Shown piece by piece: positions 1,036 through 45,577 of a stretch of 46,481 bases of DNA. The position numbers and the translations under genes were made by a program. Within the stretch, counting starts at the first letter, position 1; every line of letters starts with the position of its first letter. The stretch is taken from positions 1 through 46,481 of the IMG/VR virus record IMGVR_UViG_3300045454_000008. The stretch is one strand, 5' to 3'. Origin of the DNA: a virus. The notes beneath the pieces are model-generated. The model saw only the letters and a list, made by a program, of their open reading frames with translations, did not search any database and was not told the DNA's origin.

Positions 1036-1048
1036 GAAACGTCAACAC
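1036..1048 (-). promoter_or_regulatory. 13-bp motif copy GTGTTGACGTTTC
   Basis: Exact consensus, intergenic. It follows the HNH stop (1051) by 2 nt and lies 28 nt upstream of ATG 1008. No -10 hexamer at 17-18 bp. Confidence 0.6.
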
Positions 1049-1050
1049 GC

Positions 1051-1605
1051 TCACGTTGAGACGTGAGGTGGAACAGCCCGCAGTCGTCGCTTCCGCAGCC
1101 TGTTCGATTCGCGGCTGCACTCCAGGCATGTCCACCTGCCCCTGGGGAGCGCTCTGCGGGAGCCCTCCCTGGTAATGTCGTGTCGCCCGCTCTTGCAGCG
1201 CGTTCGGATTGCATAGCTGTTGACGCCCCTTCGCTGATTTTCCTGGTTGGTCACCGGCTCCAGGTGGTATGGGTTGACGCAGAGTGGCCGGCGACACAGG
1301 TGGTCGAGCTGAAGCCCTGGCGGAATGTCCGCAATCATCATCTCGTAGGAGACGCGATGGGCGAGCTTCGGACCGCCGCCAAGATAGAAGGTCCCCCTTC
1401 CACCGGTCTGGCTGCCGGTCCAGATCCAGCACTCCCCGTCCTGGCTCACCTTCTCCCAGAACCGTTCTTCGACCGAGCGGCGGGGTCGACGCGCCACCGG
1501 GGACAGGTCCTTGCCTTTGCGCCACTGCTGATAATGCGCGTGGCAGAGTCCGCGCGACTCGGCGGGATGGCCGCAGCCGTCGAATGTGCATGATCGATCA
1601 GCCAA
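1051..1605 (-). CDS. HNH homing-type endonuclease
   Basis: 184-aa ORF. N-terminal CTFDGCGHPAESRGLCHAHY zinc knuckle, CWIWTG, AHRVSY, and DHLCRRPLCVNPYHLEPVTNQEN (HNH_3-like signature). Paralogous to 8033-8341 and 37039-37557. Confidence 0.85.
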   Translation of the reverse strand: MADRSCTFDGCGHPAESRGLCHAHYQQWRKGKDLSPVARRPRRSVEERFWEKVSQDGECWIWTGSQTGGRGTFYLGGGPKLAHRVSYEMMIADIPPGLQLDHLCRRPLCVNPYHLEPVTNQENQRRGVNSYAIRTRCKSGRHDITREGSRRALPRGRWTCLECSRESNRLRKRRLRAVPPHVST

Positions 1606-1837
1606 GCGGAAGCCTCTCCTTCTGGGATGTCAGGTGCCACCGGTTGCACGTCGTGCAGGGGTAGGGCCGCCGTTCCAGCCGGCGCACGTCCCCCACCACA
1701 CCGTCCCTGCCTTTGGCGTAGCGGCGGGCCATGTACGCACGGCGGCGGACGTGCTGCGCTTTGCGCAGCGCCCGGTTCGCCTCATGCTCCGTCAGGTAGC
1801 CGATCTTCCCGTTGTCGGGGCAGCGGAGGTGGCTCAC
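1598..1837 (-). CDS. Small Cys-containing (zinc-ribbon-like) protein
   Basis: 79-aa ORF. GTGA overlap with the upstream stop. RCPDNG...CTTCNRWH Cys pairs. High GC3. Confidence 0.7.
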   Translation of the reverse strand: MSHLRCPDNGKIGYLTEHEANRALRKAQHVRRRAYMARRYAKGRDGVVGDVRRLERRPYPCTTCNRWHLTSQKERLPLG

Positions 1838-2139
1838 CAGCCCCGCTCCTCGACGGCGGAAACGTGCCCCTCGGCGCTGCGAATCTTCACGACGGTGCGG
1901 GGGAACCCCCCGCCCAGTTCGAGCCGCTCAGCGGCTCTCTCCGTCGCTGACAGACCGTACCCGTGGGACGCCTTACCCATGTCCACCAGTGTCAACCACC
2001 AGTCGCGGTGGAGCAGAGTGGCGTACGCCTGTTTGATGATCGCCTTCGCCAGAGCCTCGGGGGTGTCGTACTCCCCCGACTCCAGGAGCGTCACGATGGG
2101 GGCGTACTCCTCCTTGCGCGGAATGATATTCACCCCCAC
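1834..2139 (-). CDS. Hypothetical protein
   Basis: 101-aa ORF with non-repetitive composition. GGAGG lies upstream. Overlaps its neighbours by a few nt (alternative GTG start at 2133). Confidence 0.7.
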   Translation of the reverse strand: MGVNIIPRKEEYAPIVTLLESGEYDTPEALAKAIIKQAYATLLHRDWWLTLVDMGKASHGYGLSATERAAERLELGGGFPRTVVKIRSAEGHVSAVEERGW

Positions 2140-2327
2140 ATCACCTCCTCGCGGGCCAGCTCAGCCCGCCTCTCCGCCTCGTCCTCCGCCATCGCGGACA
2201 GGAACTCGTTGATGCTGTCGAAGCCGGCGTCCTCCGCCGCCTGCGCCAGTTCCTCGTCCAGCTCCAGGGTGTCCAGGTGCCGGGCCAGGGCCGCCTCGAA
2301 GGCGGCGTCAGCGTGATAGAAGGTCAC
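2130..2327 (-). CDS. Hypothetical acidic protein
   Basis: 65-aa ORF. GTG start with GGGAGG 7 nt upstream. GTGA overlap with the stop of 2324-2605. Confidence 0.65.
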   Translation of the reverse strand: MTFYHADAAFEAALARHLDTLELDEELAQAAEDAGFDSINEFLSAMAEDEAERRAELAREEVMWG

Positions 2328-2605
2328 GGCTTGACCTCCCCGCGTGCGATCCGGGCGGCGAACTCCATGCCCGGCCAGAGTCCGTATGTGGACTGACGCA
2401 CCTCTCGGGCCCGGTCAACGGCCGCCTCGATGTCCGCTGCGATGCGCTCACGGACGGCCGCCTCGATGAGCGGGGCGGCAGCGGTGAGGATCTTCTCGGC
2501 GGCGGCGGTGCCGACGGGGATGCGGGCGAACTCGTCGCCCTTGAAGGACAGGCCGATCTCGACGACGGCTGCGGCCTCGACGGCTGCGGTCAGGTCGATG
2601 CTCAT
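2324..2605 (-). CDS. Hypothetical protein
   Basis: Trimmed from ORF 2324..2734 to ATG 2605 (GGAAGGAAGTGGAC upstream). 93 aa. The N-terminal extension in the track is Arg/Gly-rich and looks like noise. Confidence 0.65.
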   Translation of the reverse strand: MSIDLTAAVEAAAVVEIGLSFKGDEFARIPVGTAAAEKILTAAAPLIEAAVRERIAADIEAAVDRAREVRQSTYGLWPGMEFAARIARGEVKP

Positions 2606-2712
2606 GTCCACTTCCTTCCACTCAAAGGCAGGTGCGTGTCGCACCACGAACCGGAGATGTACAGACGGGCGGGTTCCCCGCAGATGCGGCACTTGCGCGG
2701 CTTGGCGCTCAC
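2602..2712 (-). CDS. 36-aa zinc-ribbon-like micro-protein (below the ORF-track cutoff)
   Basis: Reads VSAKPRKCRICGEPARLYISGSWCDTHLPLSGRKWT. GTGA overlap at its start and ATGA overlap at its end link it to both neighbours. Confidence 0.5.
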   Translation of the reverse strand: MSAKPRKCRICGEPARLYISGSWCDTHLPLSGRKWT

Positions 2713-2894
2713 AGGTCGTCCCCCCACCACTCACGCAGCACCTCGGGTCGGCACCGCTCGTCGATCGTCCACACCGCCCACCGCCCGCGCGTGCGGGCGA
2801 GGTCGTCCAGGAACTGCGCCACCTCGCCGGCTGGGAGGCCGGTGCGCTGGCCGATCTCCCACGCGGACATGGGTTCGGTCCTGCGGCGGGTCAT
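2709..2894 (-). CDS. Small putative HTH DNA-binding protein
   Basis: Trimmed to ATG 2894 (ATGA overlap with the stop of 2891-3475). 61 aa. MSAWEIGQRTGLPAGEVAQFLDDLAR resembles a helix-turn-helix. Confidence 0.55.
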   Translation of the reverse strand: MTRRRTEPMSAWEIGQRTGLPAGEVAQFLDDLARTRGRWAVWTIDERCRPEVLREWWGDDL

Positions 2895-3475
2895 GCGGCC
2901 ATGTCCAGCCGCGCGGCGGAACGCAGGCAGGGGCACGCCTGAGCAGACGTGCGGACCCAGCCCCGGTAGGTCGCGGACTCCTTGCCCAGCAGCAGCTGGT
3001 AGGCCTCGTAACCGGCCTTGGGCCGGTAGTCGAAGCGGCTGTCGTGGTACGTCAGCTCGCCCCACTGACGGTCCTCGCGCCCCGCCTCGGAGCAGTCCCG
3101 CGAGATGTGGACGTAGGGCCGCGACTCCGTGCTGCCGTAGCTGCGGCTGCGGCGGAGGGACACGCGCTCGACGTGGAGCTGCAATCCCAGGTGGACCTGG
3201 CCCAGCAGTCGCGTGGCGTCGTCCACCGTGAGGCCTGGCAGCGTGTCGGCCCCGGCCTCGGAAAGCCTCGGGTAGCGCTTGCTGGGCTTGCTCACGACGG
3301 CCCACCGTTCACCGTTCACGTCCGGCTCGTCGCGCACGACCCACAGGCTCGCCGGCTTGGGGCCGGGGCCGACGATGATGCCCGTTGCGGCCGGACCCTC
3401 GCCCCAGGTGAGGCGCTGGCCCTCGCTGTACTCAGTCGGCACGTAGGGCCGCTGGCGGATCTTGCTCATTGCCAT
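2891..3475 (-). CDS. Hypothetical protein
   Basis: 194-aa ORF with ordinary composition. AGGAATGGCA precedes the ATG. No domain recognised. Confidence 0.7.
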   Translation of the reverse strand: MAMSKIRQRPYVPTEYSEGQRLTWGEGPAATGIIVGPGPKPASLWVVRDEPDVNGERWAVVSKPSKRYPRLSEAGADTLPGLTVDDATRLLGQVHLGLQLHVERVSLRRSRSYGSTESRPYVHISRDCSEAGREDRQWGELTYHDSRFDYRPKAGYEAYQLLLGKESATYRGWVRTSAQACPCLRSAARLDMAA

Positions 3476-3496
3476 TCCTTTCTCGTCGCGGAACTT

Positions 3497-3509
3497 GCTA
3501 CGTCAACAG
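3497..3509 (-). promoter_or_regulatory. 13-bp motif copy CTGTTGACGTAGC
   Basis: Intergenic, 22 nt upstream of ATG 3475, and second of two copies 30 bp apart. Confidence 0.55.
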
Positions 3510-3513
3510 ATTC

Positions 3514-3720
3514 TCATGCCTCGGCGGAAACGTCAACACGCGCCGCAACGACGATGAGGCGGACCAGGAGCAGGCCGCCGGCCAGGACGGCCAGCGCTCC
3601 CCCGTAGTGCCACCCGGAACCGACCGGCCCCAACATGGCGGACAGGAACCCACCAGCCATGAGACCGCCGCCCACGGCGGACACGATCAACCGGCCCAGC
3701 ATCATGGCGGACGGGTTCAC
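3514..3720 (-). CDS. Small membrane protein (two predicted TM helices)
   Basis: 68 aa. Hydrophobic Gly/Ala/Leu stretches LIVSAVGGGLMAGGFLSAML and GGALAVLAGGLLLV. Confidence 0.7.
   Translation of the reverse strand: MNPSAMMLGRLIVSAVGGGLMAGGFLSAMLGPVGSGWHYGGALAVLAGGLLLVRLIVVAARVDVSAEA
3527..3539 (-). promoter_or_regulatory. 13-bp motif copy GTGTTGACGTTTC (inside the 3' end of 3514-3720, encodes R-V-D-V-S)
   Basis: Exact consensus. GAATCT lies 17 bp after TTGACG and is a possible weak -10. Confidence 0.6.
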
Positions 3721-3941
3721 AGCCGGGCCGTTGCCTTGATGAGTGCGTTAGCGATGACCTGCACCGTCTCGTTGGGCACGGTCGCCAGCTCGCGCCCGTA
3801 CTGCTCGATGAGGTCCAGGGCGGTCACGGCGGCCATGTAGTCCAGGGCCAGCGCCTCGACCGTCTCGTCGGGGGCGTAGCCGGCACCGTTCGGGCCGTAG
3901 ACGACGCGGACATACTCCGCGTCCTGGTACGTCGTCTCCAT
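3717..3941 (-). CDS. Hypothetical protein
   Basis: Trimmed to ATG 3941 (METTYQDAEY...), 2 nt after the upstream stop. 74 aa. Confidence 0.65.
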   Translation of the reverse strand: METTYQDAEYVRVVYGPNGAGYAPDETVEALALDYMAAVTALDLIEQYGRELATVPNETVQVIANALIKATARL

Positions 3942-3942
3942 A

Positions 3943-4347
3943 TCACAGCCGCCCGGTCTCGCGGAGGATGCGCGCAATGGCGTCCTTCATCGTCCAGATG
4001 GGCTTGCCCGTCTCGCGCCGCTCCAGCACACCCTCGCGGACGATCTCCGCGATGCGGTCCAGCGCGTCGTCGCGCGGGTCCGGCATGTCCGTAACGTGAG
4101 AGTGGTCGTCGTCCTCGTGCTGGCAGACGCTCGGGCGGAACGGCGGAGCGGGGCGCATGTGCCTGCGCGCCACGTCCACCGGGCTCACGCCGGGGTCGCG
4201 CACCGTCCAGCCGTAGTAGTTGTCGCCCATGAGGTCCAGGTCTCGCAGCACGCGGGCCATGTAGACGCGCTCAGGGTCGATGCCGGCGGCGAAGATCGTT
4301 TGGCGGATCACGCCCACCAGCTCCGCCTTCGAGGCGTAGCGACTCAT
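3943..4347 (-). CDS. Hypothetical protein
   Basis: 134-aa ORF. GGGGAGGACG precedes the ATG. No domain recognised. Confidence 0.7.
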   Translation of the reverse strand: MSRYASKAELVGVIRQTIFAAGIDPERVYMARVLRDLDLMGDNYYGWTVRDPGVSPVDVARRHMRPAPPFRPSVCQHEDDDHSHVTDMPDPRDDALDRIAEIVREGVLERRETGKPIWTMKDAIARILRETGRL

Positions 4348-4407
4348 CGTCCTCCCCTTTCACTCGCTCGGATACTGCTTACGCGCCCTGGCGTCGAATC
4401 GAACGAC

Positions 4408-4420
4408 GCAACGTCAACAG
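4408..4420 (-). promoter_or_regulatory. 13-bp motif copy CTGTTGACGTTGC
   Basis: Intergenic, 61 nt upstream of ATG 4347. No -10 at the proper spacing. Confidence 0.55.
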
Positions 4421-4442
4421 CCAGTCCAGGGCTAACCGTGTG

Positions 4443-4709
4443 CTACGCGAGCACCGCCCGCACGTTGCGGCCCACCGACGACGGGGCGGAGGCGATGAAC
4501 TCCGCCCGCACGCGCGGCATGGGCGGCGTCAGCTGCTCCCCGGTGTCGGCGTCCTCGATGGTCCACAAGCCGTAGCGGCGGGTCAGGAGCGGGTGCGTGA
4601 GCTTGATCCGCAGCTCCTCCACGGCGGACGCCTCGCTCATCGGGCCGGCGTGTCGGCCCCTCTCGCCCGTCATGCCCATCAGGACCGGACGGGCCGTGTC
4701 GATCCTCAT
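4443..4709 (-). CDS. Hypothetical protein
   Basis: 88-aa ORF with a strong RBS (GAGAGGAAGGAACGACG before the ATG). Confidence 0.7.
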   Translation of the reverse strand: MRIDTARPVLMGMTGERGRHAGPMSEASAVEELRIKLTHPLLTRRYGLWTIEDADTGEQLTPPMPRVRAEFIASAPSSVGRNVRAVLA

Positions 4710-4746
4710 CGTCGTTCCTTCCTCTCGTCGTTGACTTGCCTAACGC

Positions 4747-4794
4747 GCCCGGCGGAGGTCTCGAACCTCCGTACGTCCCTTACCGACTCCGGGC
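4747..4794 (-). other. tRNA-like acceptor/T-arm minihelix in the 5' UTR of 4443-4709 (not a tRNA gene)
   Basis: Minus strand reads GCCCGG-AGTCGGTAAGGGACGTA-CGGAGG-TTCGAGA-CCTCCG-CCGGGC. That gives a 6-bp outer stem plus a 6-bp inner stem and a 7-nt loop matching the T-loop consensus TTCRANN. No D or anticodon arms. Confidence 0.5.
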
Positions 4795-4877
4795 CACCAG
4801 CTACGTTCGACCTTCACCACCTCCGATCGTCTGTGCTGGCCGGTCTCCTCTCCGTTGGTGTGTTGCTGTCCCTCCTA

Positions 4878-4909
4878 ACGGTAGTTGCGGTGTTGCGGTA
4901 TGTCAACAC
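4878..4909 (-). promoter_or_regulatory. Leftward promoter candidate with overlapping 20-bp palindrome (O1, 4890-4909)
   Basis: Minus strand: GTGTTGACA-N17-TACCGT. -35 TTGACA at 4906-4901 and -10 at 4883-4878. The plus strand at 4890-4909 reads GTGTTGCGGTATGTCAACAC. Confidence 0.5.
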
Positions 4910-4919
4910 TCGCCGGAAA

Positions 4920-5204
4920 CTAAGCGCGCTCCCCTCGCTCGATCAGGGCCGCGCGGGCGCGGAGCCAAACCACGAAGTCCCACTGAGCATCCGTGGTCAG
5001 CACGCCGGGGCCGGCGAAGTGGTCCGCCGCATCCCGTAGGGCCTGGGCCTGGGCGTTCCTCACCGGGTCGCGCTGCGGCGGTTGCGACCGCCTCTCGCGG
5101 CACTCCCGCGATGCGGCGTCCCACTCCTGCACCGTGGCGCAGTCCAGGTGGCCGCACCAGCCCACGACCCCGCACAGGCGGCGGACGGGTTCCTCCTTCG
5201 TCAC
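4920..5204 (-). CDS. Hypothetical Cys-containing protein
   Basis: Trimmed from ORF 4920..5639 to GTG 5204 (GTGA overlap with the stop of 5201-5341). 94 aa, VTKEEPVRRLCGVVGWCGHLDC... The upstream part of the track ORF is Gly/Arg/Pro noise. Confidence 0.6.
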   Translation of the reverse strand: MTKEEPVRRLCGVVGWCGHLDCATVQEWDAASRECRERRSQPPQRDPVRNAQAQALRDAADHFAGPGVLTTDAQWDFVVWLRARAALIERGERA

Positions 5205-5341
5205 TTGCCCTCGATCTCCCTTCGCGTCTTGCCGCAGTACGCGCACACCAGCCCGGCAGCGCGCGGCACCAGGTGGTGAGTCGAGTTGTCCGCACCCTCC
5301 GGCGCGCCCGACTCGGGGCAGTACATTTGCGTAGCTTCCAT
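5201..5341 (-). CDS. 46-aa zinc-ribbon-like micro-protein (below the ORF-track cutoff)
   Basis: Reads MEATQMYCPESGAPEGADNSTHHLVPRAAGLVCAYCGKTRREIEGK. Strong RBS GAGGAGGAGTC before the ATG. High GC3. Confidence 0.55.
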   Translation of the reverse strand: MEATQMYCPESGAPEGADNSTHHLVPRAAGLVCAYCGKTRREIEGK

Positions 5342-5389
5342 GACTCCTCCTCGCTGATGGGTTCCGGGCAATCATCGCAGGCCGGCGGA

Positions 5390-5683
5390 TCACTCCTCCG
5401 TCAGGGCCTCGACCACCTCGGACCAGTTCACGCGCCACAGGCTGCCGACCTCGTGGGCCATCATCTCGATGCCCTCCGGCTGGGCCGTGCCGTACATCTC
5501 GCGGTACTCGGCGGGGTTCAACAGCTCCTCCACCTGCCCCCGGACGGCCCGCTCCTGGTCGTCCGGGTAGTCCCGGACGATCTGGCGGAACATCTCGTAC
5601 AGGCCCTGGTCGTTGTTGATGTGGAGCATGAGCGCCCACGTCTCGCGGTTCGTCCAGCCCTGGTAGGTCTCGTCCGTGCCCAT
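5390..5683 (-). CDS. Hypothetical protein (WTNRETW motif)
   Basis: Trimmed to ATG 5683 (GAGAGGTGAGGACG upstream). 97 aa, acidic. Confidence 0.7.
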   Translation of the reverse strand: MGTDETYQGWTNRETWALMLHINNDQGLYEMFRQIVRDYPDDQERAVRGQVEELLNPAEYREMYGTAQPEGIEMMAHEVGSLWRVNWSEVVEALTEE

Positions 5684-5716
5684 CGTCCTCACCTCTCGGT
5701 CTCGGTTACTGCCTAC

Positions 5717-5761
5717 GTGCGGCCCCGGGACTCGCACCCGGTATGTCTGCTAGCGCCGCGC
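5717..5761 (-). other. Weaker tRNA-like minihelix in the 5' UTR of 5390-5683
   Basis: Minus strand reads GCGGC-GCTAGCAGACATA-CCGGG-TGCGAGT-CCCGG-G-GCCGC. Same architecture as 4747-4794, but the loop is TGCGAGT (position 2 deviates from the T-loop consensus) and the stems are shorter. Confidence 0.3.
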
Positions 5762-5861
5762 CACCTCTCACGGTTGGCGGATACTGCACCTGCTATCCAG
5801 CGTTGCCTTTCGTCTAGCGCCGGCCCTGCTGCCCTGCCTCCCTCCCCTCTCGCCTGTCTCT

Positions 5862-5893
5862 AGTGTGGCACAGGTGTTGCGCTACGTCAACAC
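5862..5893 (-). promoter_or_regulatory. Leftward promoter candidate with overlapping 20-bp palindrome (O2, 5874-5893)
   Basis: Minus strand: GTGTTGACG-N17-CACACT. The plus strand at 5874-5893 reads GTGTTGCGCTACGTCAACAC. Sits at the start of a roughly 200-nt leader. Confidence 0.5.
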
Positions 5894-5897
5894 GCAC

Positions 5898-6113
5898 TCA
5901 CAACCAGCCCGCGTCCAACCATGCGCGGACGCGAGGATCAGTGGACGTGTCGCCCCTGCGCGTGGTCCGGTCCGGGTCTGACGACCATGCATCGCGGACG
6001 ACGGGACGGAACGACTCCGGCCCGAACTCCTCCAGCTCTGCCAGGACTGCGCCCTGCGGGTACCACGTCGCACCGGGGCGCGTAGCAACGGGGACGCCCG
6101 TCGCGGCGCTCAC
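5898..6113 (-). CDS. Hypothetical protein
   Basis: Trimmed to GTG 6113 (GTGA overlap with the stop of 6110-6418). 71 aa. Confidence 0.55.
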   Translation of the reverse strand: MSAATGVPVATRPGATWYPQGAVLAELEEFGPESFRPVVRDAWSSDPDRTTRRGDTSTDPRVRAWLDAGWL

Positions 6114-6418
6114 GATCCCCACCCGTGCGCCCGGTTGACGCCGGCAACGGCGACGCGGACACGCGCGCGGTCACCCGACAGGCGCGCGCGACGCAGTTCC
6201 TCGTACCAGGCGTCCGTATGGGCGCGGCACACCGTCCGCACCCAGTCCGGGACGAACGATGCGCGCTCCGTCGCTGACATCTCGCCCCACGCGCCACCAC
6301 CGGGGCGCGCGGTGAACCAACCCGCGTCGGACACGTAGGCCGGCTGGCGCCGCCCGTTCACAGTCACGCCGCCCCATACGGTGCCGATGAGCGGCAGGGC
6401 CGTCGTCGTCTCACTCAT
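6110..6418 (-). CDS. Hypothetical protein, paralog A (VPDWVR motif)
   Basis: Trimmed to ATG 6418 (GAGAGGGGATGGAATA upstream). 102 aa. Shares VP(D/E)WVR and its leader with 6521-6877. Confidence 0.65.
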   Translation of the reverse strand: MSETTTALPLIGTVWGGVTVNGRRQPAYVSDAGWFTARPGGGAWGEMSATERASFVPDWVRTVCRAHTDAWYEELRRARLSGDRARVRVAVAGVNRAHGWGS

Positions 6419-6428
6419 TATTCCATCC

Positions 6429-6493
6429 CCTCTCAGAGTGCTACTGCCACCACCACCGCCACCATGAGGTGGCGATGATGGAAACGGCAACAC
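6429..6493 (-). promoter_or_regulatory. Conserved leader, copy 1: GTGTTGCCGTTTCCATC + hairpin + 26-nt box
   Basis: Motif variant at 6481-6493. Hairpin CGCCACC/GGTGGCG at 6457-6474. The 26-mer at 6429-6454 is identical to 6885-6910. Confidence 0.55.
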
Positions 6494-6520
6494 GTCAGGC
6501 GTGGACACCCATCGCGGCGG

Positions 6521-6877
6521 TCACGATGCACCACCGACGTGGAGGAGGTGGGCGCGGACACCGCCTGCGACCGTCTCGGCGGTCACGCCGTCGCGGAAGT
6601 CGCCCACATAGGAGGCCGCGCCATCCAGCGTCGCGGAGTCCTCGCGCGCCTCATCTGCGGCGGCCACGATCATGTCACGCACCCACTCCGGGACCACGGT
6701 CCAGCGCTCACGGATCACGCGCCCCGCGAAAGCGTGTCCGTGCGGGTAGGTCACGACCGTGCGCACACGGTCCGGCTCGCCTGGCGTCACGGCGTATGTG
6801 TGCACCACGCGGACGGGCGTCCGCGTCCATCCCGAACGGGTGAGTGAGTCGCGGATGCGGTATTCGGTGGTCATCAT
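6521..6877 (-). CDS. Hypothetical protein, paralog B (VPEWVR motif)
   Basis: Trimmed to ATG 6877 (GAGAGGAGAGGGA upstream). 118 aa. Confidence 0.65.
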   Translation of the reverse strand: MMTTEYRIRDSLTRSGWTRTPVRVVHTYAVTPGEPDRVRTVVTYPHGHAFAGRVIRERWTVVPEWVRDMIVAAADEAREDSATLDGAASYVGDFRDGVTAETVAGGVRAHLLHVGGAS

Positions 6878-6884
6878 TCCCTCT

Positions 6885-6949
6885 CCTCTCAGAGTGCTAC
6901 TGCCACCACCGCGCACCGCGTGAACGGTGCGGGATGGAAACGGCAACAC
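6885..6949 (-). promoter_or_regulatory. Conserved leader, copy 2: GTGTTGCCGTTTCCATC + hairpin + 26-nt box
   Basis: Motif variant at 6937-6949, directly after the TAA of 6950-7228. Hairpin CGCACCG/CGGTGCG at 6912-6931. 26-mer at 6885-6910. Confidence 0.55.
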
Positions 6950-7228
6950 TTACAGCTCAGAACCGCACCGGTCGCAGGTGTCGCCATCCACCTGGGATGC
7001 GAAGATCACCTTGGGGAAGTCGCCCGAGTCGAACGAGTATTCGTCCATCCGGTCGATGCCGAACGCCGCTGCCAGTTCGTTTAGGTTCTGCTCGGCGGAC
7101 ATCTGTCCGGTGGCGTCGCGCCACCCGTCGAACGCCTCACCCTCACCCGTGGGGAGTGCGTCGACGACGCACGAGCTGCAAAGCGTCTCTGCCTGGAACG
7201 TGTAGCCGGCGATGGCCGTTGCGCGCAT
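6950..7228 (-). CDS. Small zinc-ribbon-like protein, first gene of the leftward operon
   Basis: Trimmed to ATG 7228 (GAGAGGATCGGGACA upstream). 92 aa with CSSC...CDRC Cys pairs. Confidence 0.65.
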   Translation of the reverse strand: MRATAIAGYTFQAETLCSSCVVDALPTGEGEAFDGWRDATGQMSAEQNLNELAAAFGIDRMDEYSFDSGDFPKVIFASQVDGDTCDRCGSEL

Positions 7229-7264
7229 TGTCCCGATCCTCTCTCGTGCTCTCCTTGTGCTCCC

Positions 7265-7296: not shown

Positions 7297-7400
7297 ATGC
7301 CGCCAAGATTCTTCGACGAGCTTTGGACGCCGGCACGGATGCGAGAGGCCGCCAGCCTGACGCCGTAAGGCGGACACGGGGACAGTCTCCCAATCTCGCC

Positions 7401-39470: not shown

Positions 39471-39676
39471 GGGTCGAGGCTGGAATGCTGGCAGAGCTGG
39501 CTCGGATCAGTGAGCTACTGCTGAAGCCCGGCAAGGAAAAGGGCGACATCTTCTATGTGCACTCCGCTCGCCTGGCGGTCGTGGGCGACGACGTGGTGTG
39601 CGTCGAGTACGTCCCGTCTGACGACGGCGAGTCTCTGGATGTGCGGTTCGTGGACGGCCAGTGGGGTGGCGAGTGA
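39467..39676 (+). CDS. Hypothetical protein
   Basis: Trimmed to GTG 39467 (GTGA overlap). 69 aa. Confidence 0.55.
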   Translation: MRVEAGMLAELARISELLLKPGKEKGDIFYVHSARLAVVGDDVVCVEYVPSDDGESLDVRFVDGQWGGE

Positions 39677-40107
39677 AGGCGTTCGACGACGGCGAGGGCA
39701 GCGAGATCCTGACCGCGCACTACGACACCGACGGGGGTGTGCGGTTGGACTCCCTGGCGTCTCTCGCGGCGAGGGCGACGGACATGCCGTCCTGGGTGGC
39801 GAACGCTCTGGCTGACAAGTTCGAGCAGTGGGAGGGTCCCGCCACCCCGCGCCGGCAGGCGCTCATGGAGGCCGCCGACCTGATCGACAACGACAGGAAC
39901 GCCCAGTACGGGGAGCCGTCAGTCAACCTGGGGAACACCAGGGACATTTTTCAGGTGCTGTTCCCGGAGCGGCAGTGGACTGCCGCCGACGTGGCACGGG
40001 CAATGGTGGCGGTGAAGCTGGCCCGGTCTGTGCACCAGTACAAGCGGGACACGGGCGTGGACCTGCTGGGCTGGGCCGCCATCTACGTGGAACTGGAGGA
40101 GACGTGA
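39673..40107 (+). CDS. Hypothetical protein (conserved phage C-terminal module RNAQYGEP...KLAR)
   Basis: Trimmed to GTG 39673 (GTGA overlap). 144 aa. Confidence 0.6.
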   Translation: MKAFDDGEGSEILTAHYDTDGGVRLDSLASLAARATDMPSWVANALADKFEQWEGPATPRRQALMEAADLIDNDRNAQYGEPSVNLGNTRDIFQVLFPERQWTAADVARAMVAVKLARSVHQYKRDTGVDLLGWAAIYVELEET

Positions 40108-40460
40108 CCTCGCAGAACCAGAAGAACCGTCGCAAAGGCTCCCAGTATGAACTGGACGTGCTGGCATACGTCCGTTCGCTCGGCCTTCCCGCCGAGCGGC
40201 TGCGCCTTTCAGGTCGGTTTGACGAGGGCGATCTCGTCATTCAGGACGAAGACCTCACGTACATCTGCGAGTTGAAGAACGAGCAGAAGCTGAACCTCGC
40301 AGGCTGGGTCACCGAGGCCATCGTGGAGCGGGCGAACTATGCGAAGAAGCGGGACATCAACCCTGACGACGTGATGCCGCTGGTGGTGGTGAAGCGCCGA
40401 GGCCGCCCCATCGCGGACTCATATGTCGTAGTGCCGTTGAAGGAGTTCCTGGCCCCGTAG
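40104..40460 (+). CDS. PD-(D/E)XK nuclease, Holliday-junction-resolvase-like
   Basis: GTG 40104 (GTGA overlap). 118 aa. GSQYELDV...GDLVIQDEDLTYICELKNEQK fits the E...D...ExK pattern. Confidence 0.5.
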   Translation: MTSQNQKNRRKGSQYELDVLAYVRSLGLPAERLRLSGRFDEGDLVIQDEDLTYICELKNEQKLNLAGWVTEAIVERANYAKKRDINPDDVMPLVVVKRRGRPIADSYVVVPLKEFLAP

Positions 40461-40493
40461 GTGTTGACGTTGCGGTGTTGCTGTTGCTACACT
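40461..40493 (+). promoter_or_regulatory. Internal promoter candidate (best -35/-10 pair of the motif family)
   Basis: GTGTTGACG-N18-TACACT. Intergenic, 40 nt before ATG 40534. Contains the direct repeat GTGTTG...GTGTTG. Confidence 0.5.
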
Positions 40494-40533
40494 CGATGGC
40501 ATCACCCCACCGACCGCAGGAGGAACTGCGCTC

Positions 40534-41100
40534 ATGTTCACGCCCGAAGACCCCCGGCGCCGCTTCGTCTGGGACCTCATCGACGCCCGCTGGCCTGAGC
40601 TGTGGGACCAGCCGGCCCCGCTGAAGGCGACACCGGAACTCATCGCCACCATCGCCCAGGAACTCATCGAAGCGTTCCCCACGGGTTCGTGGAAGAACGG
40701 CGAGAGGAACGCCCGCAACCGCGCCCTGTCGCAGCACCGACGGATGGTGCGGTCCTGGCTGGACGACCCGGGTCTGCTGTCGCCGCACGTCGATCCGGTG
40801 GCCGTGCACCGTGCCGTGTCCTTCGACTGGGACACGATCCGCAACCTCACCCTGCTGGAGCGGGACACGTTCGTCACCGAGCTGGCGTGCATGACCGACC
40901 CGTGGTCGGAGCATGACGGGCGTTCCGGATTCGAGGACGTGGCACGGCGCTGGTGGCCGGGCTTCTTCGAGAAGCGCGGCATGGAGCCGACACCTTCGGA
41001 GCGGCGCAACCAGTTCCTGTCAGCCCCGCCGGAGGAGCGCCTGGCGCTGAACCGGCAGGTGAACAAGCGGCGCAAGGACATGCGGGAGGTGGCGGCGTGA
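40534..41100 (+). CDS. Hypothetical protein
   Basis: 188-aa ORF. GGAGGAACTGCGCTC precedes the ATG. Confidence 0.7.
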   Translation: MFTPEDPRRRFVWDLIDARWPELWDQPAPLKATPELIATIAQELIEAFPTGSWKNGERNARNRALSQHRRMVRSWLDDPGLLSPHVDPVAVHRAVSFDWDTIRNLTLLERDTFVTELACMTDPWSEHDGRSGFEDVARRWWPGFFEKRGMEPTPSERRNQFLSAPPEERLALNRQVNKRRKDMREVAA

Positions 41101-41522
41101 ACGACAACTTCGAGCGGCTGGTCGCTGACGACCTATACGAGCTGACCCGTCTCCTGCACACCGTCGGCTACGAGAAGTCGGGCGGCCTGCTGGGCGGCGA
41201 GTTCGGGTACGGCGCCGAGGTGGACAACGACGTGTTCGAGATGCACCCGTACTGGTGGGGCGACTGCCTCTGCGGCTACAGCGAGGCCGAGTGGGAGTTC
41301 GACAAGGCCTCCCACCCGACCGACTCCATGTGGCAGGAGTGGTACGAGCGCCACGACCACGAGCCCGACTGCCCCACCGTCCGCCCCAACTTCCGCCACA
41401 AGGCCAGCGGCGTCGAGGTGCGTTGGTACAAGTACCTCGGTCGCAGCATGGAGATCAAGGGCCTCGGCAGCCGCAAGCAGTGGCGGCGCATCATCACCGA
41501 GTGCGAGGAGGCCGTCGCGTGA
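41097..41522 (+). CDS. Hypothetical protein
   Basis: Trimmed to GTG 41097 (GTGA overlap). 141 aa. Confidence 0.6.
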   Translation: MNDNFERLVADDLYELTRLLHTVGYEKSGGLLGGEFGYGAEVDNDVFEMHPYWWGDCLCGYSEAEWEFDKASHPTDSMWQEWYERHDHEPDCPTVRPNFRHKASGVEVRWYKYLGRSMEIKGLGSRKQWRRIITECEEAVA

Positions 41523-41719
41523 ACAAGCCCTACGTGTTCAACCGGAACTACTGGCCGGCGCGCAGCCCTGACGGGCGGGTCAACAGGCGGTACCGATACC
41601 CCGATGAGACCCGCGACCGCCCCTGGGCGTGCGAGACGGACACCGTGTCCGACTACTTCGAGACGCACGCTGAGGCGATCCAGTTCGCCCTGTCCGCCAC
41701 GAGGGAGCCGACGGCGTGA
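41519..41719 (+). CDS. Hypothetical protein
   Basis: Trimmed to GTG 41519 (GTGA overlap). 66 aa. Confidence 0.55.
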   Translation: MNKPYVFNRNYWPARSPDGRVNRRYRYPDETRDRPWACETDTVSDYFETHAEAIQFALSATREPTA

Positions 41720-41886
41720 AGCGGGTCATCAAGCATTGGGCCGAGGAGGACGCCTATACCGGGTGGCGGCGCTACTACTGCTACCTCCAGCGGGCGGGGG
41801 CGGTCAAGAAGATCAAGCGCATGACCCACCGCCGTGAGCGCCGCGAGGCGCGGCGCTGGATCGCTGAGCAGACGGACGACGAATGA
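41716..41886 (+). CDS. 56-aa basic protein (below the track cutoff)
   Basis: Reads VKRVIKHWAEEDAYTGWRRYYCYLQRAGAVKKIKRMTHRRERREARRWIAEQTDDE. GTGA overlap at its start and ATGA overlap at its end. Confidence 0.5.
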   Translation: MKRVIKHWAEEDAYTGWRRYYCYLQRAGAVKKIKRMTHRRERREARRWIAEQTDDE

Positions 41887-42245
41887 TCGTCCCCCTCCGC
41901 CCGATCCTGGAGCACTACGCCATCTACTTCCACGACACCGACTCGTGGCAGAAAACCAGATGCCCCGTGCATGACGACGGTGTGCCGTCGTGCTCACTCA
42001 ATCTCGGCACCAACTACATGGAGTGCCACGCCTGCCCCTTCAAGGGGCACACCCTCGATCTCATCATGGCGAAGGAGAACCTGAGTGACCGTCAAGCCGC
42101 TCTTGCGTTCGCAAAGGGAATCCTTGGAGATGGCGACTTCCAGATTTCAGGAAGCTCTGGCTGGAGGTCCGGGAGAAGCGTTCGTCCGGGAGCGGGGTTT
42201 AAGCCCCGCTACGGTGGAGGACTTCAGAATCGGGTACGTCGCTGA
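41883..42245 (+). CDS. DNA primase, zinc-finger (CHC2-like) part
   Basis: RCPVHDDGVPSCSLNLGTNYMECHAC. After about 42128 the frame gives Gly/Arg/Ser-rich low-complexity sequence that is probably not genuine. Confidence 0.65.
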   Translation: MIVPLRPILEHYAIYFHDTDSWQKTRCPVHDDGVPSCSLNLGTNYMECHACPFKGHTLDLIMAKENLSDRQAALAFAKGILGDGDFQISGSSGWRSGRSVRPGAGFKPRYGGGLQNRVRR

Positions 42246-42741
42246 CAACACCACGCCCGGGTTCGAGCGGTTCGCCGGCAGGGTAGCCATCCCCAACCTG
42301 TGCGCCGCAGGTCACGTCGTCGGCATCAAGTTCCGGGAGATCCCACCCGCCGACAGCGGGAAGAAGTATGACGCCCCGGCGGGGCAGCAGAACCGCCTGT
42401 TCAACCTGCGCGCCCTCAACACCCCATCCGACTACATCGCCCTCACGGAGGGCGAGATTGATGCCATCAGTTTGGTGCAGTTGGGCGTTCCCGCTGTTGC
42501 TGTTCCCGGGGCGCAGGCGTGGAACAAGGCGCGACACTGGCGCCTGTTCGAGGGATACCGGCGCATCGTCCTGTTCCGTGACAACGACGACGCGGGGAGT
42601 GAACTGGTGAAGAAGGTCCTGGAATCCGACCTCCCTGTACTCGTGGTTAATCCCCCGCACGGCGTCAAGGACGCCAACGAAGCGCTCGTCGCCGGGTTCG
42701 GTGACGAGCTGGTCAACCTCGTGAAGGGTGCCATCAAGTGA
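42130..42741 (+). CDS. DNA primase, TOPRIM part (+1 frame relative to the zinc-finger ORF)
   Basis: FVRERGLSPATVEDFRIGYV, ALTEGEIDAISL, LFRDNDDAG (TOPRIM acidic motifs). ATG 42130; the track ORF begins at GTG 42085. Confidence 0.7.
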   Translation: MATSRFQEALAGGPGEAFVRERGLSPATVEDFRIGYVADNTTPGFERFAGRVAIPNLCAAGHVVGIKFREIPPADSGKKYDAPAGQQNRLFNLRALNTPSDYIALTEGEIDAISLVQLGVPAVAVPGAQAWNKARHWRLFEGYRRIVLFRDNDDAGSELVKKVLESDLPVLVVNPPHGVKDANEALVAGFGDELVNLVKGAIK

Positions 42742-43343
42742 AGTGCTCCGTGGAGGGGTGCGAGCGAGAGATCTGTGCGCGCGGCTGGTGCCGCAAGCAC
42801 TACAGCCGCTGGCACCGTGGCCTCCCGCTGCACCCGACGCCGCGCCGCCGGCCCAAGCCCAAGGTTCGCCTTCCGTGCGCCTGGGCCACCTGCGACCGCC
42901 TCGTTCAAGCCAATGGCTACTGCGCCATGCACAACGAGAGGGCCAAGCGCGGCGCCCCGATGGACGCGCCGCCCCGTCGCCGCATCCCCGGCGACACCTG
43001 CTCCGTGACGCCGTGCGGGGAGCCGCACCTCTCGGGCGGCTACTGCAAGCGGCACTACAACATCCGCAAGGTGCACCGGGTTGATCCCCAGGAGTGGCAG
43101 GACCGGTTCGAGGCACAGGGCCGCGCCTGCAAGGTGTGTCGCACGACAGATCCCGGCGGGAAGTGGTGGCACACCGACCACGACCACGCCTGTTGCCCGG
43201 ACTACAAGCAGTCGTGCGGCGAGTGCTTCAGGGGCGTCCTGTGCGGGCGGTGCAACGCCGCCCTTGGCTACGCCCGCGACGACGTGGAGATCCTGCGTGG
43301 CCTTGCCGCGTATCTAACCGAATGGCAGAGGAGCCGGACGTGA
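42738..43343 (+). CDS. Endonuclease VII-type nuclease with three N-terminal Cys-His knuckles
   Basis: Three (C..C......G.C..H) repeats, then WWHTDHDHACCPDYKQSCGECFRGVLCGRCNAALGYA. GTGA-coupled start. Confidence 0.8.
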   Translation: MKCSVEGCEREICARGWCRKHYSRWHRGLPLHPTPRRRPKPKVRLPCAWATCDRLVQANGYCAMHNERAKRGAPMDAPPRRRIPGDTCSVTPCGEPHLSGGYCKRHYNIRKVHRVDPQEWQDRFEAQGRACKVCRTTDPGGKWWHTDHDHACCPDYKQSCGECFRGVLCGRCNAALGYARDDVEILRGLAAYLTEWQRSRT

Positions 43344-44095
43344 GTGCAAAGATCCTTGCCCTGGACTTGGAGACGAGTCCGAACCTTGCCCACGTCTGGG
43401 GGCTGTGGCAGCAGAACGTGTCGCTCTCCCAGCTCCTCGGCTCCACCGAGGTGATCTGCTTCGGCGCCCGGTGGCTCGGCAAGAAGGCCGTCACCTTCCG
43501 CTCCGTGCACCACAACGGCAAGGAGCAGATGCTCCGGGACCTCCACGCGCTGCTGGATGAGGCCGACGCCGTGATGGGCTGGAACTCGAAGGGGTTCGAC
43601 TCCAAGCACATGAAGCGGGAGTTCCTGGAGGCGGGGCTGACCCCGCCGTCGCCGTACAAGGAACTCGACCTGATGCTGGCGTGCAAGAAGCACTTCCGCT
43701 TCCCCAGTTTCAAGCTCGACTACGTGGCCCAGCGCCTCGGCGTGGGCGCCAAGGTGAAGCATGAGGGACACGGCCTCTGGATCAAGTGCCTGGCCGGCGA
43801 TGACGCCGCCTGGAAGCGAATGAAGCGCTACCAAATCCAGGACGTGAACCTCCTGATCGACCTCTACGACAAGCTGCTGCCCTGGCTGGGCAGCACTCTG
43901 CCCAACGCCAACCTGTACGGCGACGGCACCAGGGTCTGCCCCAAGTGCGGCGTGGACGCCCTCCAGCGGCGAGGGTTCTACCACCTCGCCACCGGCACGT
44001 ACCCGCGCAACTGGTGCGACACCGCCAAGGGCGGGTGCGGTGGCTGGTCCCGTGACACGAACCGCGTGAACGCCTCCACGGTGGTCGCCGTATGA
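43340..44095 (+). CDS. DnaQ-like 3'-5' exonuclease (RNase H fold) with C-terminal zinc finger
   Basis: GTG 43340 (GTGA overlap). LALDLETSP (ExoI DxE), GWNSKGFDSKH (ExoII), YQIQDVNLL (ExoIII YxxxD), CPKCG...CDTAKGGC. Confidence 0.7.
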   Translation: MSAKILALDLETSPNLAHVWGLWQQNVSLSQLLGSTEVICFGARWLGKKAVTFRSVHHNGKEQMLRDLHALLDEADAVMGWNSKGFDSKHMKREFLEAGLTPPSPYKELDLMLACKKHFRFPSFKLDYVAQRLGVGAKVKHEGHGLWIKCLAGDDAAWKRMKRYQIQDVNLLIDLYDKLLPWLGSTLPNANLYGDGTRVCPKCGVDALQRRGFYHLATGTYPRNWCDTAKGGCGGWSRDTNRVNASTVVAV

Positions 44096-44556
44096 CCGAA
44101 TGGCGCCCCGTCCCCGGCTTCCCCGCCTACGAGGTTAGCGCGCTGGGTGAGGTCCGGCGTGGTGGACGCCAGCTTTCCCTATTCCAGGATGGCTCTGGCT
44201 ACCTCGCAGTCACCCTGTGCGAAGGCGGCGTGCGAAAGCGGTTCCGCGTGCACTCGGTGGTGCTTCTCGCCTTCGCCGGCCCGAGGCCCCGAGGCGCAGT
44301 CAGCCGGCACCTCGACGGCGACCCCCATAATAACGCCGCCGAGAATCTGACTTACGGCACCCAGAGCGAGAACATGCGCGATCGAATCGCGCACGGCACG
44401 GACCCCAATGCAAGCCGGTCCGAGTGCCACCGGGGCCACCCGTACACCGAGGCGAACACTTACGTCGGAATGAACCCCGGGGGCCGACCGTGCAGAGTGT
44501 GCCGCGCCTGCACGAGGGAGCGTCATCGTGCGAGGAGAGAGGCTCGTGTGATATGA
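44092..44556 (+). CDS. HNH endonuclease (NUMOD4-like N-terminus)
   Basis: EWRPVPGFPAYEVSALGEVR...HSVVLLAF...RHLDGDPHNNAAENLTYGTQSEN. ATGA-coupled start. Confidence 0.8.
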   Translation: MTEWRPVPGFPAYEVSALGEVRRGGRQLSLFQDGSGYLAVTLCEGGVRKRFRVHSVVLLAFAGPRPRGAVSRHLDGDPHNNAAENLTYGTQSENMRDRIAHGTDPNASRSECHRGHPYTEANTYVGMNPGGRPCRVCRACTRERHRARREARVI

Positions 44557-44849
44557 GTGTTGACGTTTCGTTGGACGAGCTGATCCTGCTCGGACTCGAC
44601 TTCCAGTTGAACGTCCCGTGTGAGCACGGGCAGCACAACCGCAAGCACCAGGCCGACGACCCCGCAGCGTGGGTCGTCATGTACCTGTGCCACAAGTGCC
44701 CGGAGCGCAGGCAGTACCTGTTGTGCGAATCAGGGCGCGTGTACATGCAGCCCCCCACCCTGCTGGGGTGCACGGGCGCCGGCTGCGGCGCCTCCGGCTA
44801 CTGGTCGGACTTCTTCATCCTCTGCGAACCCCTGGAGCGTGCCGCGTGA
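44553..44849 (+). CDS. Cys-rich protein coupled to the sigma-like gene
   Basis: ATG 44553 (ATGA overlap). 98 aa with 7 Cys, including CHKC. Confidence 0.6.
   Translation: MSVDVSLDELILLGLDFQLNVPCEHGQHNRKHQADDPAAWVVMYLCHKCPERRQYLLCESGRVYMQPPTLLGCTGAGCGASGYWSDFFILCEPLERAA
44557..44569 (+). promoter_or_regulatory. 13-bp motif copy GTGTTGACGTTTC (codons 2-6, S-V-D-V-S)
   Basis: Exact consensus, immediately after the HNH stop. Confidence 0.55.
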
Positions 44850-45577
44850 GTCGTGACGAGCGGTTCGCCCAGCTGTACTCGATCGCCCGCAAGGCTGCGG
44901 CCATCACCCACCACGCCAACCGTGACTTCACGGACCCCGAAGACCTCACCCAGTCCGCCATGCTGTGGCTGCTGGAGCACCCGGAGCGCATCGACCACAA
45001 CACGATGCCCGACGGGCGGTTGGCTCACAACCGCCTCGTGTCCGAGGCCGTCAGGGTGCTGGTGCGGCAGGCGAAGCGGGAACGCCGGCAGGCCCTCGGC
45101 TACGACCCTGACGCCGAGTACACGTACAGCGTGAAGCTGGTCGAAGCGGTCCTGCCTGGTGTGTTCGACCCCAACCACCGCCCCGTGCGCCCGGAGGGCG
45201 AAGAGAAGGTGTCCGGCAACCGTGACCCGTCCGAGGGGAACAACTGGGCGGCGTACGTGATGGACCTGAAGCGGGCCGTCCATGCGGTGTGCGACGTGGT
45301 GGACAAGCGCATCCTGTTCGCCCGCTCCGTGGGCGGGTGGACGTGGGCCGACTTCGGCAAGCGCTACTCCCAGTCCGGGGAGTGGCATCGGGTGCGCTAC
45401 CACGAGGCCGTCAGTCGCCTCGTGGCGTGGCTCAACGACGGGGTGGTCCTAGAGTCCAGCCCTGACGCCGAGATCCTCTCAGAGGCGCTCAAACCGGCCG
45501 TGACGGCCCCTCGTGTGGACGTTGCCACGTCATGGACGACGGCCGGCAGGGACCAGTACCGGGAACCGGAGCTGTAG
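44846..45577 (+). CDS. Sigma-70-family (ECF-like) protein
   Basis: GTG 44846 (GTGA overlap). 243 aa. FAQLYSIARKAA...DPEDLTQSAMLWLLEH resembles region 2. KRILFARSVGGWTWADFGKRYSQSGEWHRVRYHEAVSRLVAWL resembles the region 4 HTH. Confidence 0.5.
   Translation: MSRDERFAQLYSIARKAAAITHHANRDFTDPEDLTQSAMLWLLEHPERIDHNTMPDGRLAHNRLVSEAVRVLVRQAKRERRQALGYDPDAEYTYSVKLVEAVLPGVFDPNHRPVRPEGEEKVSGNRDPSEGNNWAAYVMDLKRAVHAVCDVVDKRILFARSVGGWTWADFGKRYSQSGEWHRVRYHEAVSRLVAWLNDGVVLESSPDAEILSEALKPAVTAPRVDVATSWTTAGRDQYREPEL
45513..45525 (+). promoter_or_regulatory. Motif variant GTGTGGACGTTGC (encodes R-V-D-V-A)
   Basis: One mismatch to the consensus, in the same codon phase as the other coding copies. Confidence 0.35.

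Follow-up and report, generated by a model that had tools for sequence, protein, structure and literature searches.

Dispersed, transcription-oriented 13-bp sites as a probable repressor–stoperator immunity system of new specificity in an uncultured phage lineage

The viral record IMGVR_UViG_3300045454_000008 (46,481 nucleotides, considered at its full length and hereafter called the window) carries an asymmetric 13-bp motif, STGTTGACGTWKC, which is dispersed through its leftward arm, structural block and early block and always points along local transcription. It is very probable from the sequence that this motif is the asymmetric site of the immunity repressor encoded at 34769–35206, which would act as an operator at three or four probable promoters and as a stoperator elsewhere. 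The verdict reached is that of a repressor–stoperator immunity system of the cluster A and R4-like kind, belonging to an undescribed uncultured lineage and endowed with a new site specificity. That the repressor binds the 13-bp sites, and that it halts elongation once bound, are both inferred from homology.

The exact consensus occurs 12 times, against none expected from dinucleotide-preserving shuffles; the five copies between 1036 and 5893 are on the minus strand, the seven between 12480 and 44569 on the plus strand (Table 1). All 12 lie at the coordinates and on the strands given by a first-pass annotation of the sequence, and the recurrent spellings that it had pointed out (GTGTTGACGTTTC four times and GTGTTGACGTTGC three times), along with near-copies at 4897, 36330 and 45513, are likewise present. 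When k-mers were ranked against a Markov background, blind to the motif, TGTTGACGTT came first (11 observed vs. 0.05 expected); that such a ranking works can be seen from the controls, in which the known stoperators of phages L5 and Lika emerged as the top k-mers. It was used in place of an earlier blind search allowing one mismatch, which was swamped by GC-rich codon k-mers. A position weight matrix (PWM) built from the 12 exact copies yields 17 sites scoring at least 13, as opposed to 0.8 in shuffles, every one of which points along the genes around it; antisense matches are at noise level, with none among the sites above this score, so that the proposed orientation lock with transcription holds. 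A high-confidence set of 14 sites can be drawn up, each of them co-oriented with local transcription (14/14). The information content is limited to 13 columns, and the motif is asymmetric rather than palindromic. Looking up the motif string in the literature brought up nothing but unrelated primers and the like.

The window begins and ends with the same 127 bases (1–127 = 46355–46481), and hence it represents a complete genome, assembled as a closed circle of about 46,354 bp; the minus-strand genes at its two ends (1–1008 and 45968–46480) fuse across the junction into a single 464-aa open reading frame, and the terminal duplication causes no motif copy to be counted twice. A gene map derived from codon log-odds resolves a rightward structural block (8295–32488), a leftward integrase pair (32588–34524), rightward early genes from 34769 onward, and a leftward block that extends from 7228 over the circular junction to 45675, with neighboring genes mostly overlapping by 1–4 nt. 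In the high-confidence set, the orientation of the motif flips only once around this circle, as might be imagined for a polar DNA signal of replication, recombination or packaging—a Chi-like element oriented by genome-scale polarity. However, the flip coincides with the switch in transcription, and in one metagenomic relative (L004, see below) the minus-strand sites of a leftward integrase operon set amid rightward genes are close to consensus, their equivalents in the window, at 34552 and 34575, being degenerate. Thus, the polarity follows transcription locally. Moreover, neither the concentration at gene boundaries described next nor the difference in motif among close relatives would be expected of a Chi-like signal, which we therefore regard as scarcely credible.

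The motif also reaches into protein-coding sequence, and there its cost is visible. Codon-preserving shuffles, named beforehand as a test on which the motif could fall, did not refute it: synonymous-codon shuffling within genes, with protein and codon usage kept, gives about 0.1 in-gene copies and codon-order shuffling 0.004, as against 7 observed. The copies are typically translated as V-D-V, and while GTT makes up 7.9% of the valine codons of the genome, seven of the 12 V-D-V tripeptides in the window are spelled GTT-GAC-GTT, a spelling that codon usage predicts for 0.6% of them, or about 0.07 in all. Together, the shuffles and this rare-codon spelling indicate that selection acts on the DNA rather than on the protein, as the first-pass annotation had proposed. 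A conserved V-D-V peptide was considered and rejected: the other five tripeptides use the common GTG for the first valine—four are GTG-GAC-GTG and the fifth, at the near-copy 45513, GTG-GAC-GTT—and homologues of the PD-(D/E)XK nuclease lack the second valine. In that nuclease the G-V-D at the second site is common to the homologues and the second valine is specific to the window, and therefore sites appear to have arisen where the peptide was already nearly compatible.

Eight of the nine in-gene copies read NGT GTT GAC GTT NCN, with 12480 alone in another phase. The first-pass annotation was right about these eight but overstated how unusual they are: placing the first motif base at codon position 3 gives NNG TGT TGA, a stop, which leaves two possible phases, and an 8:1 split between the two is only modestly unusual (p~0.02). 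The recurrence of V-D-V with rare GTT is thus a consequence of there being only two phases that avoid a stop codon. Of the PWM sites, 14/17 lie between genes or no more than 60 nt from a gene boundary, compared with 4.8 expected (p<=5e-5), and six of the nine in-gene copies also lie within that distance; because the genes mostly overlap or abut, such boundary sites come to be written into coding ends. The fixed reading phase can therefore largely be explained by stop-codon exclusion combined with placement at gene termini. The distance from a site to the next start codon varies from 21 to >100 nt. Comparable in being conserved, asymmetric, 13 bp long and repeated along an actinophage genome in the direction of its genes is the start-associated sequence (SAS) of cluster K mycobacteriophages, which overlaps the ribosome-binding site and keeps a short, constant spacing to the start codon downstream; the variable spacing just noted and the three sites in mid-gene separate the motif of the window from an element of this type.

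By sequence, profile and predicted fold, the 145-aa product of 34769–35206 is a homologue of the L5 gp71 and R4-like repressors, which bears out the earlier suggestion of this helix-turn-helix (HTH) protein as a candidate binder. It has no match in Pfam, and matches phrog_3929 ‘transcriptional repressor’ (E 5e-23) and the ‘immunity repressor’ of 172 R4-like (BD-cluster) Streptomyces phages at 30–34% identity (Lika 1e-17), these being its closest relatives among cultured phages; it also aligns end to end with L5 gp71 (E 5e-5). A profile of 24 family members recovers gp71 with 96.7% probability in hhalign (E 3.5e-10) and the PDB ‘Immunity repressor’ entries 7r6r/7tz1 (E 1.5e-9), 7r6r being found by the family profile and not by phmmer with the window repressor alone. 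The AlphaFold (AF2) model (mean predicted local distance difference test, pLDDT, 84.7) has 7r6r as its sole significant Foldseek match in the PDB, over the full length and with a template modeling (TM) score of 0.64, the next match having an E of 0.8. This structure shows the cluster A TipsytheTRex repressor on asymmetric DNA as a monomer made up of an HTH, a helix bridge and a domain termed ‘Stoperator’; the HTH is the part that RNA polymerase would reach first, and reversal of the site abolishes the elongation block (PMC9283540). In pairwise alignment L5 R45 and Q46 correspond to window R38 and Q39, and R108 to R96, invariant throughout the family. Of these L5 residues, R45 and R108 are needed for binding to DNA (PMC9283540). 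K81 aligns with window E72, a difference that falls in the domain that would read the divergent half-site, and the recognition helix of the window repressor resembles that of L5 (VTRQAIS), not that of Lika.

At least 39 metagenomic homologues of the repressor were found, with 39–84% identity, and the loci of ten of them, each sampled over 8–20 kb only, have a common order of lysis genes, leftward integrase, rightward repressor, small genes and PD-(D/E)XK nuclease. In nine of these relatives, with repressors 46–64% identical to that of the window, blind discovery brings out a dispersed GTGTT-headed motif proper to each, mostly co-oriented (Table 1), with GTGTTGTCA as another among these distinct motifs; the sites lie at gene junctions or 3′ ends. 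Positional conservation, which the first-pass annotation had put forward as a check, is seen at two sites. That at 27029 matches an L004 site inside a 20-nt identical block, in a region 82% identical overall, and the probable promoter after the RusA-like gene at 40461 corresponds to one at 8100 in L007, with the -35 and -10 conserved and the spacer diverged. At this promoter the site carries the tail TTGC in the window, whereas L007 has TACC, and either tail agrees with the consensus across its own genome. Such a concerted change of the tail points to a phage-specific trans-acting reader rather than a host sigma factor.

This bears directly on the question of whether the motif might be a promoter element of the -35 type, read by the principal sigma factor of the host or by the gp53-like protein at 44846–45577, with each copy starting a transcript. 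The motif does contain TTGACG, promoters are co-oriented with genes by definition and would explain the placement at gene boundaries, and the 44846–45577 product matches phrog_354 ‘sigma-K factor’ (6e-9) and, weakly, sigma70-ECF; L5 gp53 too is annotated as ‘sigma-K factor’. A -10-like TANNNT at 16–19 bp follows three of 20 sites (4897, 40461 and 34552; background 0.003 per site), and 40461 alone passes a sigma-70 consensus scan of 32400–46481, with none passing in 1–8400. Yet about 10 of the 14 sites have no -10 partner, and nothing is conserved past the 13 columns, so that no conserved -10 lies downstream of the motif and the earlier statement that most copies are not ordinary promoters stands, three or four sites having promoter anatomy. 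The sigma assignment falls far below threshold (15.9 vs. 42.9 bits), as does the Pfam gp53 match (17 vs. 27 bits), the tail varies among relatives where a host -35 should stay constant, and a homologous repressor family is known to bind such sites. A comparison of the gp53-like proteins of the relatives (29–33% identity) was uninformative. A promoter element of this kind is judged quite unlikely, and the sigma-like protein, one of the readers first suggested, is not favored. A variant in which both proteins use the sites—as roadblocks in lysogeny and, in the lytic cycle, as recognition elements for RNA polymerase with the gp53-like protein—seems quite unlikely; if true, it would mean that the repressor and a phage sigma factor compete for one genome-wide set of gene-boundary sites, and it would explain the sense-oriented, -35-like TTGAC on the upstream side of the stoperators of L5, cluster CA and the lineage of the window.

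Under the repressor–stoperator reading, the sites at 4897, 40461, 34552/34575 and, more weakly, 5881 are probably operators laid over promoter -35 boxes, as judged from the surrounding sequence, while the remaining 10 or so, devoid of promoter anatomy, fit a stoperator role. An inverted GCAACA(C/T) directly follows the 13-mer at 4897, 5881 and 34575, and gives GTGTTG-N8-CAACAC at the first two. Beyond the full sites, GTGTTGC/GCAACAC heptamers occur in both orientations, 12 of 14 in non-coding regulatory gaps (34526–34682, 35541–35593, 40475, 4860–4896 and 5874), and a palindrome of them, GCGCAACAACGGTGTTGCGC (35541–35560), adjoins a TAGGAT -10-like hexamer upstream of the gene at 35617. The repressor may use these heptamers as half sites or as sites of low affinity, or a second regulator may bind them.

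Their clustering in regulatory gaps in both directions suggests more than one recognition mode or protein, and could be held to favor a different phage protein as the reader of the 13-bp sites, such as a Cro-like factor or the 104-aa product of 34210–34524 (minus strand), the gene for which lies upstream of the integrase and looks leaderless. That protein, with a Cys-rich C-terminus (CPVC...HYREC), has no match in Pfam, PHROGs or NCBIfam. Nonetheless, to our knowledge, the gp71 family is the only one that reads asymmetric 13–14-bp dispersed sites as a monomer, the residues aligned with the DNA-contact residues of L5 are conserved, and the TTGAC-first polarity is common to L5 and the window, all of which make such a reader very unlikely.

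Three variants of the motif (6481, 6937 and 23934; Table 1), all with C at position 7, were set apart from the sites because folding shows them as hairpin arms, and they may represent a different element. The first two had been listed by the first-pass annotation, and though they are indeed present, their membership in the motif set is doubtful. Their hairpin units, which differ by compensatory changes in the apical stem, form a leftward-arm repeat in which GTGTTGCCGTTTCCATC pairs with GGTGGTGGCAGTAGCAC around the apical stem, followed by CTCTGAGAGGRGA and the next start codon; this looks like a conserved RNA or DNA hairpin, perhaps a processing site or attenuator, with the resemblance to the motif arising by chance. 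The hairpin at 23918–23969 has a 17-bp stem and is likely a terminator or stabilizer behind the capsid gene. Such hairpins, taken with the strict sense orientation and the many copies just upstream of the next start, are what would recommend an action of the motif in RNA, as a signal for processing, stability or translation. However, the 14 canonical copies have no conserved flanks and no constant distance to the next start, the intergenic copies over -35 boxes would not be transcribed from those promoters, and repressor homology accounts for the data with no RNA role. An RNA-level signal, also raised by the first-pass annotation, is thus not needed and is held to be highly improbable.

The analogy drawn earlier with the stoperators of cluster A mycobacteriophages agrees in size, asymmetry, dispersal, polarity and gene-boundary placement. 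The L5 site, GGTGGMTGTCAAG, occupies the strand opposite to the direction of each arm (minus where the arm runs rightward, plus where it runs leftward), and hence reads along transcription as CTTGACAKCCACC, C-TTGACA-KCCACC, with the same TTGAC-first polarity as the window motif, GTG-TTGACG-TTKC. Both systems pair a homologous repressor with a dispersed 13-bp asymmetric site in one orientation relative to transcription, have some sites overlapping a promoter -35 (a probable one in the window), place small gene(s) and a PD-(D/E)XK exonuclease in order after the repressor, and have a gp53-like gene. In contrast, the two repressors are just 25% identical, that of the window being shorter (145 vs. 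183 aa) and encoded centrally, rightward and beside the integrase, whereas that of L5 is in the leftward right arm; the tail after TTGAC is GTTKC rather than KCCACC; the sites are fewer (14–17 vs. the >20 reported for L5); more of them are in coding sequence, with three in mid-gene; and those of the promoter type adjoin an inverted GCAACAC. With the R4-like phages (cluster BD; R4, phiELB20, Zemlya, Lika and phiHau3) the parallel extends to the layout, Lika likewise having structural genes, a central rightward repressor, early genes and a leftward block, and the co-oriented Lika site, GTGTGCWACCTTCG, has GTGT..A...TTC in common with the window motif. However, there is no nucleotide similarity, Lika has a serine integrase where the window has a tyrosine type, the terminase of the window is instead related to that of another Streptomyces phage group (44% identity), and BD sites are reported to be mainly intergenic. 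Two regions of the window gave no nucleotide match by megablast against 50,697 phage records.

Repressor–stoperator systems with phage-specific consensuses are reported for R4-like phages (PMC10276819, citing Smith et al. 2013), and similar systems have been noted in phages of Gordonia, Rhodococcus and Streptomyces (PMC6550527; PMC13313380). The Rhodococcus cluster CA consensus, TGTCTATTGTCAAG (PMC13313380), begins CTTGACA along transcription and is thus TTGAC-first like that of the window, with the consensus and the phage lineage being otherwise different.

Several observations weigh against reading the motif as the site of this repressor. Stoperators are described as intergenic or overlapping gene termini (PMC13313380), and the copies at 22683, 36330 and 36759 are in mid-gene, which is unusual for them. 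The probable early promoter downstream of the repressor gene (~35555–35585) has GTGTTGC heptamers and no full site; the window has degenerate sites (PWM score <9) at its integrase-side promoter; and the motif holds a -35-like hexamer, so that sites with no obvious -10 may have some promoter function. The motif counts per relative are small, given the extent of each sampled locus, and the most distant relative, L006 (39%), has no dispersed GTGTT-type motif in its sampled locus. Two copies of a palindrome, ACTTGCAAGT, flank the L006 repressor gene at 9964 and 10754, and operators of the conventional symmetric type may be in use in this branch of the family.

Table 1. Sites, promoters, hairpins and principal genes of the window, and the motifs of its metagenomic relatives
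Feature	Sequence	Position	Strand	Context
Site	GTGTTGACGTTTC	1036–1048	minus	Intergenic, 27 nt upstream of start of junction-spanning gene
Site	CTGTTGACGTAGC	3497–3509	minus	Intergenic, 27 nt upstream of gene 2891–3469
Site	GTGTTGACGTTTC	3527–3539	minus	In last 26 nt of gene 3514–3720 (R-V-D-V-S), 17 bp upstream of 3497 site
Site	CTGTTGACGTTGC	4408–4420	minus	Intergenic
Operator-type near-copy (4897–4909), then inverted GCAACAC	GTGTTGACATACC	4878–4909	minus	Probable leftward promoter: -35 TTGACA, 17 nt, -10 TACCGT (4883–4878)
Site, then inverted GCAACAC	GTGTTGACGTAGC	5881–5893	minus	Weaker -10-like CACACT; probable leftward promoter with operator
Site	CTGTTGACGTTTC	12480–12492	plus	23 nt before stop of endonuclease VII gene 12003–12515; other phase
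Site	GTGTTGACGTTTC	22683–22695	plus	Mid-gene in 22391–22915, upstream of major head protein gene; G-V-D-V-S
Site	GTGTTGACGTTGC	27029–27041	plus	25 nt before stop of small gene 26887–27066; position kept in L004
Near-copy	GTGTTGACGTTCC	36330–36342	plus	In PD-(D/E)XK nuclease gene, G-V-D-V-P; first site downstream of repressor gene
Site	GTGTTGACGTTGC	36759–36771	plus	In PD-(D/E)XK nuclease gene, G-V-D-V-A
Site	CTGTTGACGTTTC	37991–38003	plus	46 nt before stop of gene 37750–38049
Operator-type site	GTGTTGACGTTGC	40461–40493	plus	Right behind RusA-like gene; probable rightward promoter: -35 TTGACG (40464–40469), 18 nt, -10 TACACT (40488–40493)
Site	GTGTTGACGTTTC	44557–44569	plus	Gene junction, immediately after TGA of HNH endonuclease gene 44092–44556
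Near-copy	GTGTGGACGTTGC	45513–45525	plus	52 nt before stop of gp53-like gene
Degenerate site	GCGTTGACGTGCC	34575–34587	minus	Within 34531–34587, promoter of 104-aa gene and integrase operon
Degenerate site	TGGTTGACGTAGT	34552–34564	minus	Same promoter, 23 bp from the preceding site
Probable leaderless leftward promoter		34531–34587	minus	-10 TACAGT (34536–34531), ATG 6 nt on; layout with near-consensus sites also in L004
Probable repressor promoter		34695–34723	plus	-35 TTGCAA (34695–34700), 17 nt, -10 TACGCT (34718–34723); read from sequence
Immunity repressor, 145 aa		34769–35206	plus	L5 gp71/R4-like family; N-terminal HTH (VTRQAISAW), C-terminal ‘Stoperator’-type domain
Tyrosine integrase		33137–34210	minus	Pfam Phage_integrase 6.6e-13
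Hairpin with variant (6481–6493)	GTGTTGCCGTTTC	6430–6495	minus	Variant is 5′ arm; upstream of gene 6110–6418; -40.6 kcal/mol, z -6.6; membership uncertain
Hairpin with variant (6937–6949)	GTGTTGCCGTTTC	6885–6951	minus	Second copy of 6430–6495 unit; -35.6 kcal/mol, z -4.7; membership uncertain
Hairpin with variant (23934–23946)	GTGTTGCTGTTTC	23918–23969	plus	Variant at top; just after major head gene; -39.7 kcal/mol, z -6.6; membership uncertain
Relative L007	GTGTTGACGTACC			Repressor identity 64%; 5 copies, all co-oriented
Relative L012	GTGTTGACGTTCC			Repressor identity 61%; 2–3 copies
Relative L003	GTGTTGACAT			Repressor identity 59%; 2 copies
Relative L004	GTGTTGACGTTGC			Repressor identity 56–59%; 3–5 copies
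Relative L011	GTGTTGACA			Repressor identity 57%; 4 copies
Relative L005	GGTGTTGTCA			Repressor identity 54%; 3–4 copies
Relative L010	GTGTTGCGTAACCACC			Repressor identity 54%; 2–3 copies
Relative L009	GTGTTACAGCG			Repressor identity 46%; 5 copies
Relative L008	GTGTTGTAGCG			Repressor identity 46%; 4 copies
Relative L006				Repressor identity 39%; no clear motif

Further elements can be recognized around the repressor gene and elsewhere in the window. The positions of the hexamers of the repressor promoter are conserved in relatives, and a box in the integrase–repressor gap, GACCTGCAACGAC (34643–34656), is nearly invariant in the window, L003, L004 and L005, with diverged flanks. A second over-represented word, AACTACAT, has eight copies against 0.11 expected; just downstream of the repressor gene it forms AACTACAT..ATGTAGTT palindromes at about 35247–35269 and 35311–35328, which interleave with two strong hairpins at 35274–35297 and 35334–35367 (-23 and -27 kcal/mol). 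The elements of 35247–35370 may combine terminators with operators for a further regulator, or may be origin-like. No gene was called with confidence in the roughly 1.07 kb (7229–8294) that separate the terminase from the leftward arm; this gap presumably holds the packaging site, the promoters of that arm and a small terminase, and CTGTTGCTGTTGC, which weakly resembles the motif, is seen at 7271. Three genes code for nucleases of the homing type, namely, the endonuclease VII at 12003–12515, right after the portal gene, and the HNH proteins at 37078–37557 and 44092–44556 in the early region; motif copies are found at the 3′ end of the first and right behind the stop of the last.

A temperate lifestyle is indicated by the integrase gene. 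A search of the window for tRNAs found none. With a family alignment as the query, 185,579 species genomes gave no match and two viral contigs were matched, with no lysogen or host identified, and with the single repressor protein as the query no related loci were found in genomes or viral contigs.

In such a temperate phage, immunity would probably work as follows. If the solved cluster A repressor is a guide, each site would be occupied by a single monomer, with its N-terminal HTH on the upstream TTGAC half and its C-terminal Stoperator-type domain on the downstream tail; a 13-mer on its own is not bound by the cluster A repressor. At 40461, at 4897, probably at 5881 and at the weaker pair 34552/34575, the -35 lies under the site, which would serve as an operator, the bound repressor blocking initiation; at the other 10 or so sites the repressor would present an orientation-dependent roadblock to elongating RNA polymerase. 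Such roadblocks would keep the structural, early and leftward blocks silent in the lysogen and confer immunity to superinfection.

The mechanism itself is ordinary, and no new one is revealed. Rather, the silencing of prophages by repressor and stoperators is extended to a lineage known only from metagenomes (the genome of the window and at least 39 repressor homologues, with no nucleotide-level counterpart in the cultured-phage collection), with a very clean set of sites of new specificity, which also offers a clear case of regulatory sites lodged inside protein-coding sequence, the price of which shows in the choice of codons. The ten pairs of repressor and motif, with a common GTGTT head and a varying tail, may be seen as a natural series for the reading of DNA by a two-domain monomer, and in conjunction with the solved structure of a cluster A repressor on DNA, this series bears on how new immunity specificities evolve.

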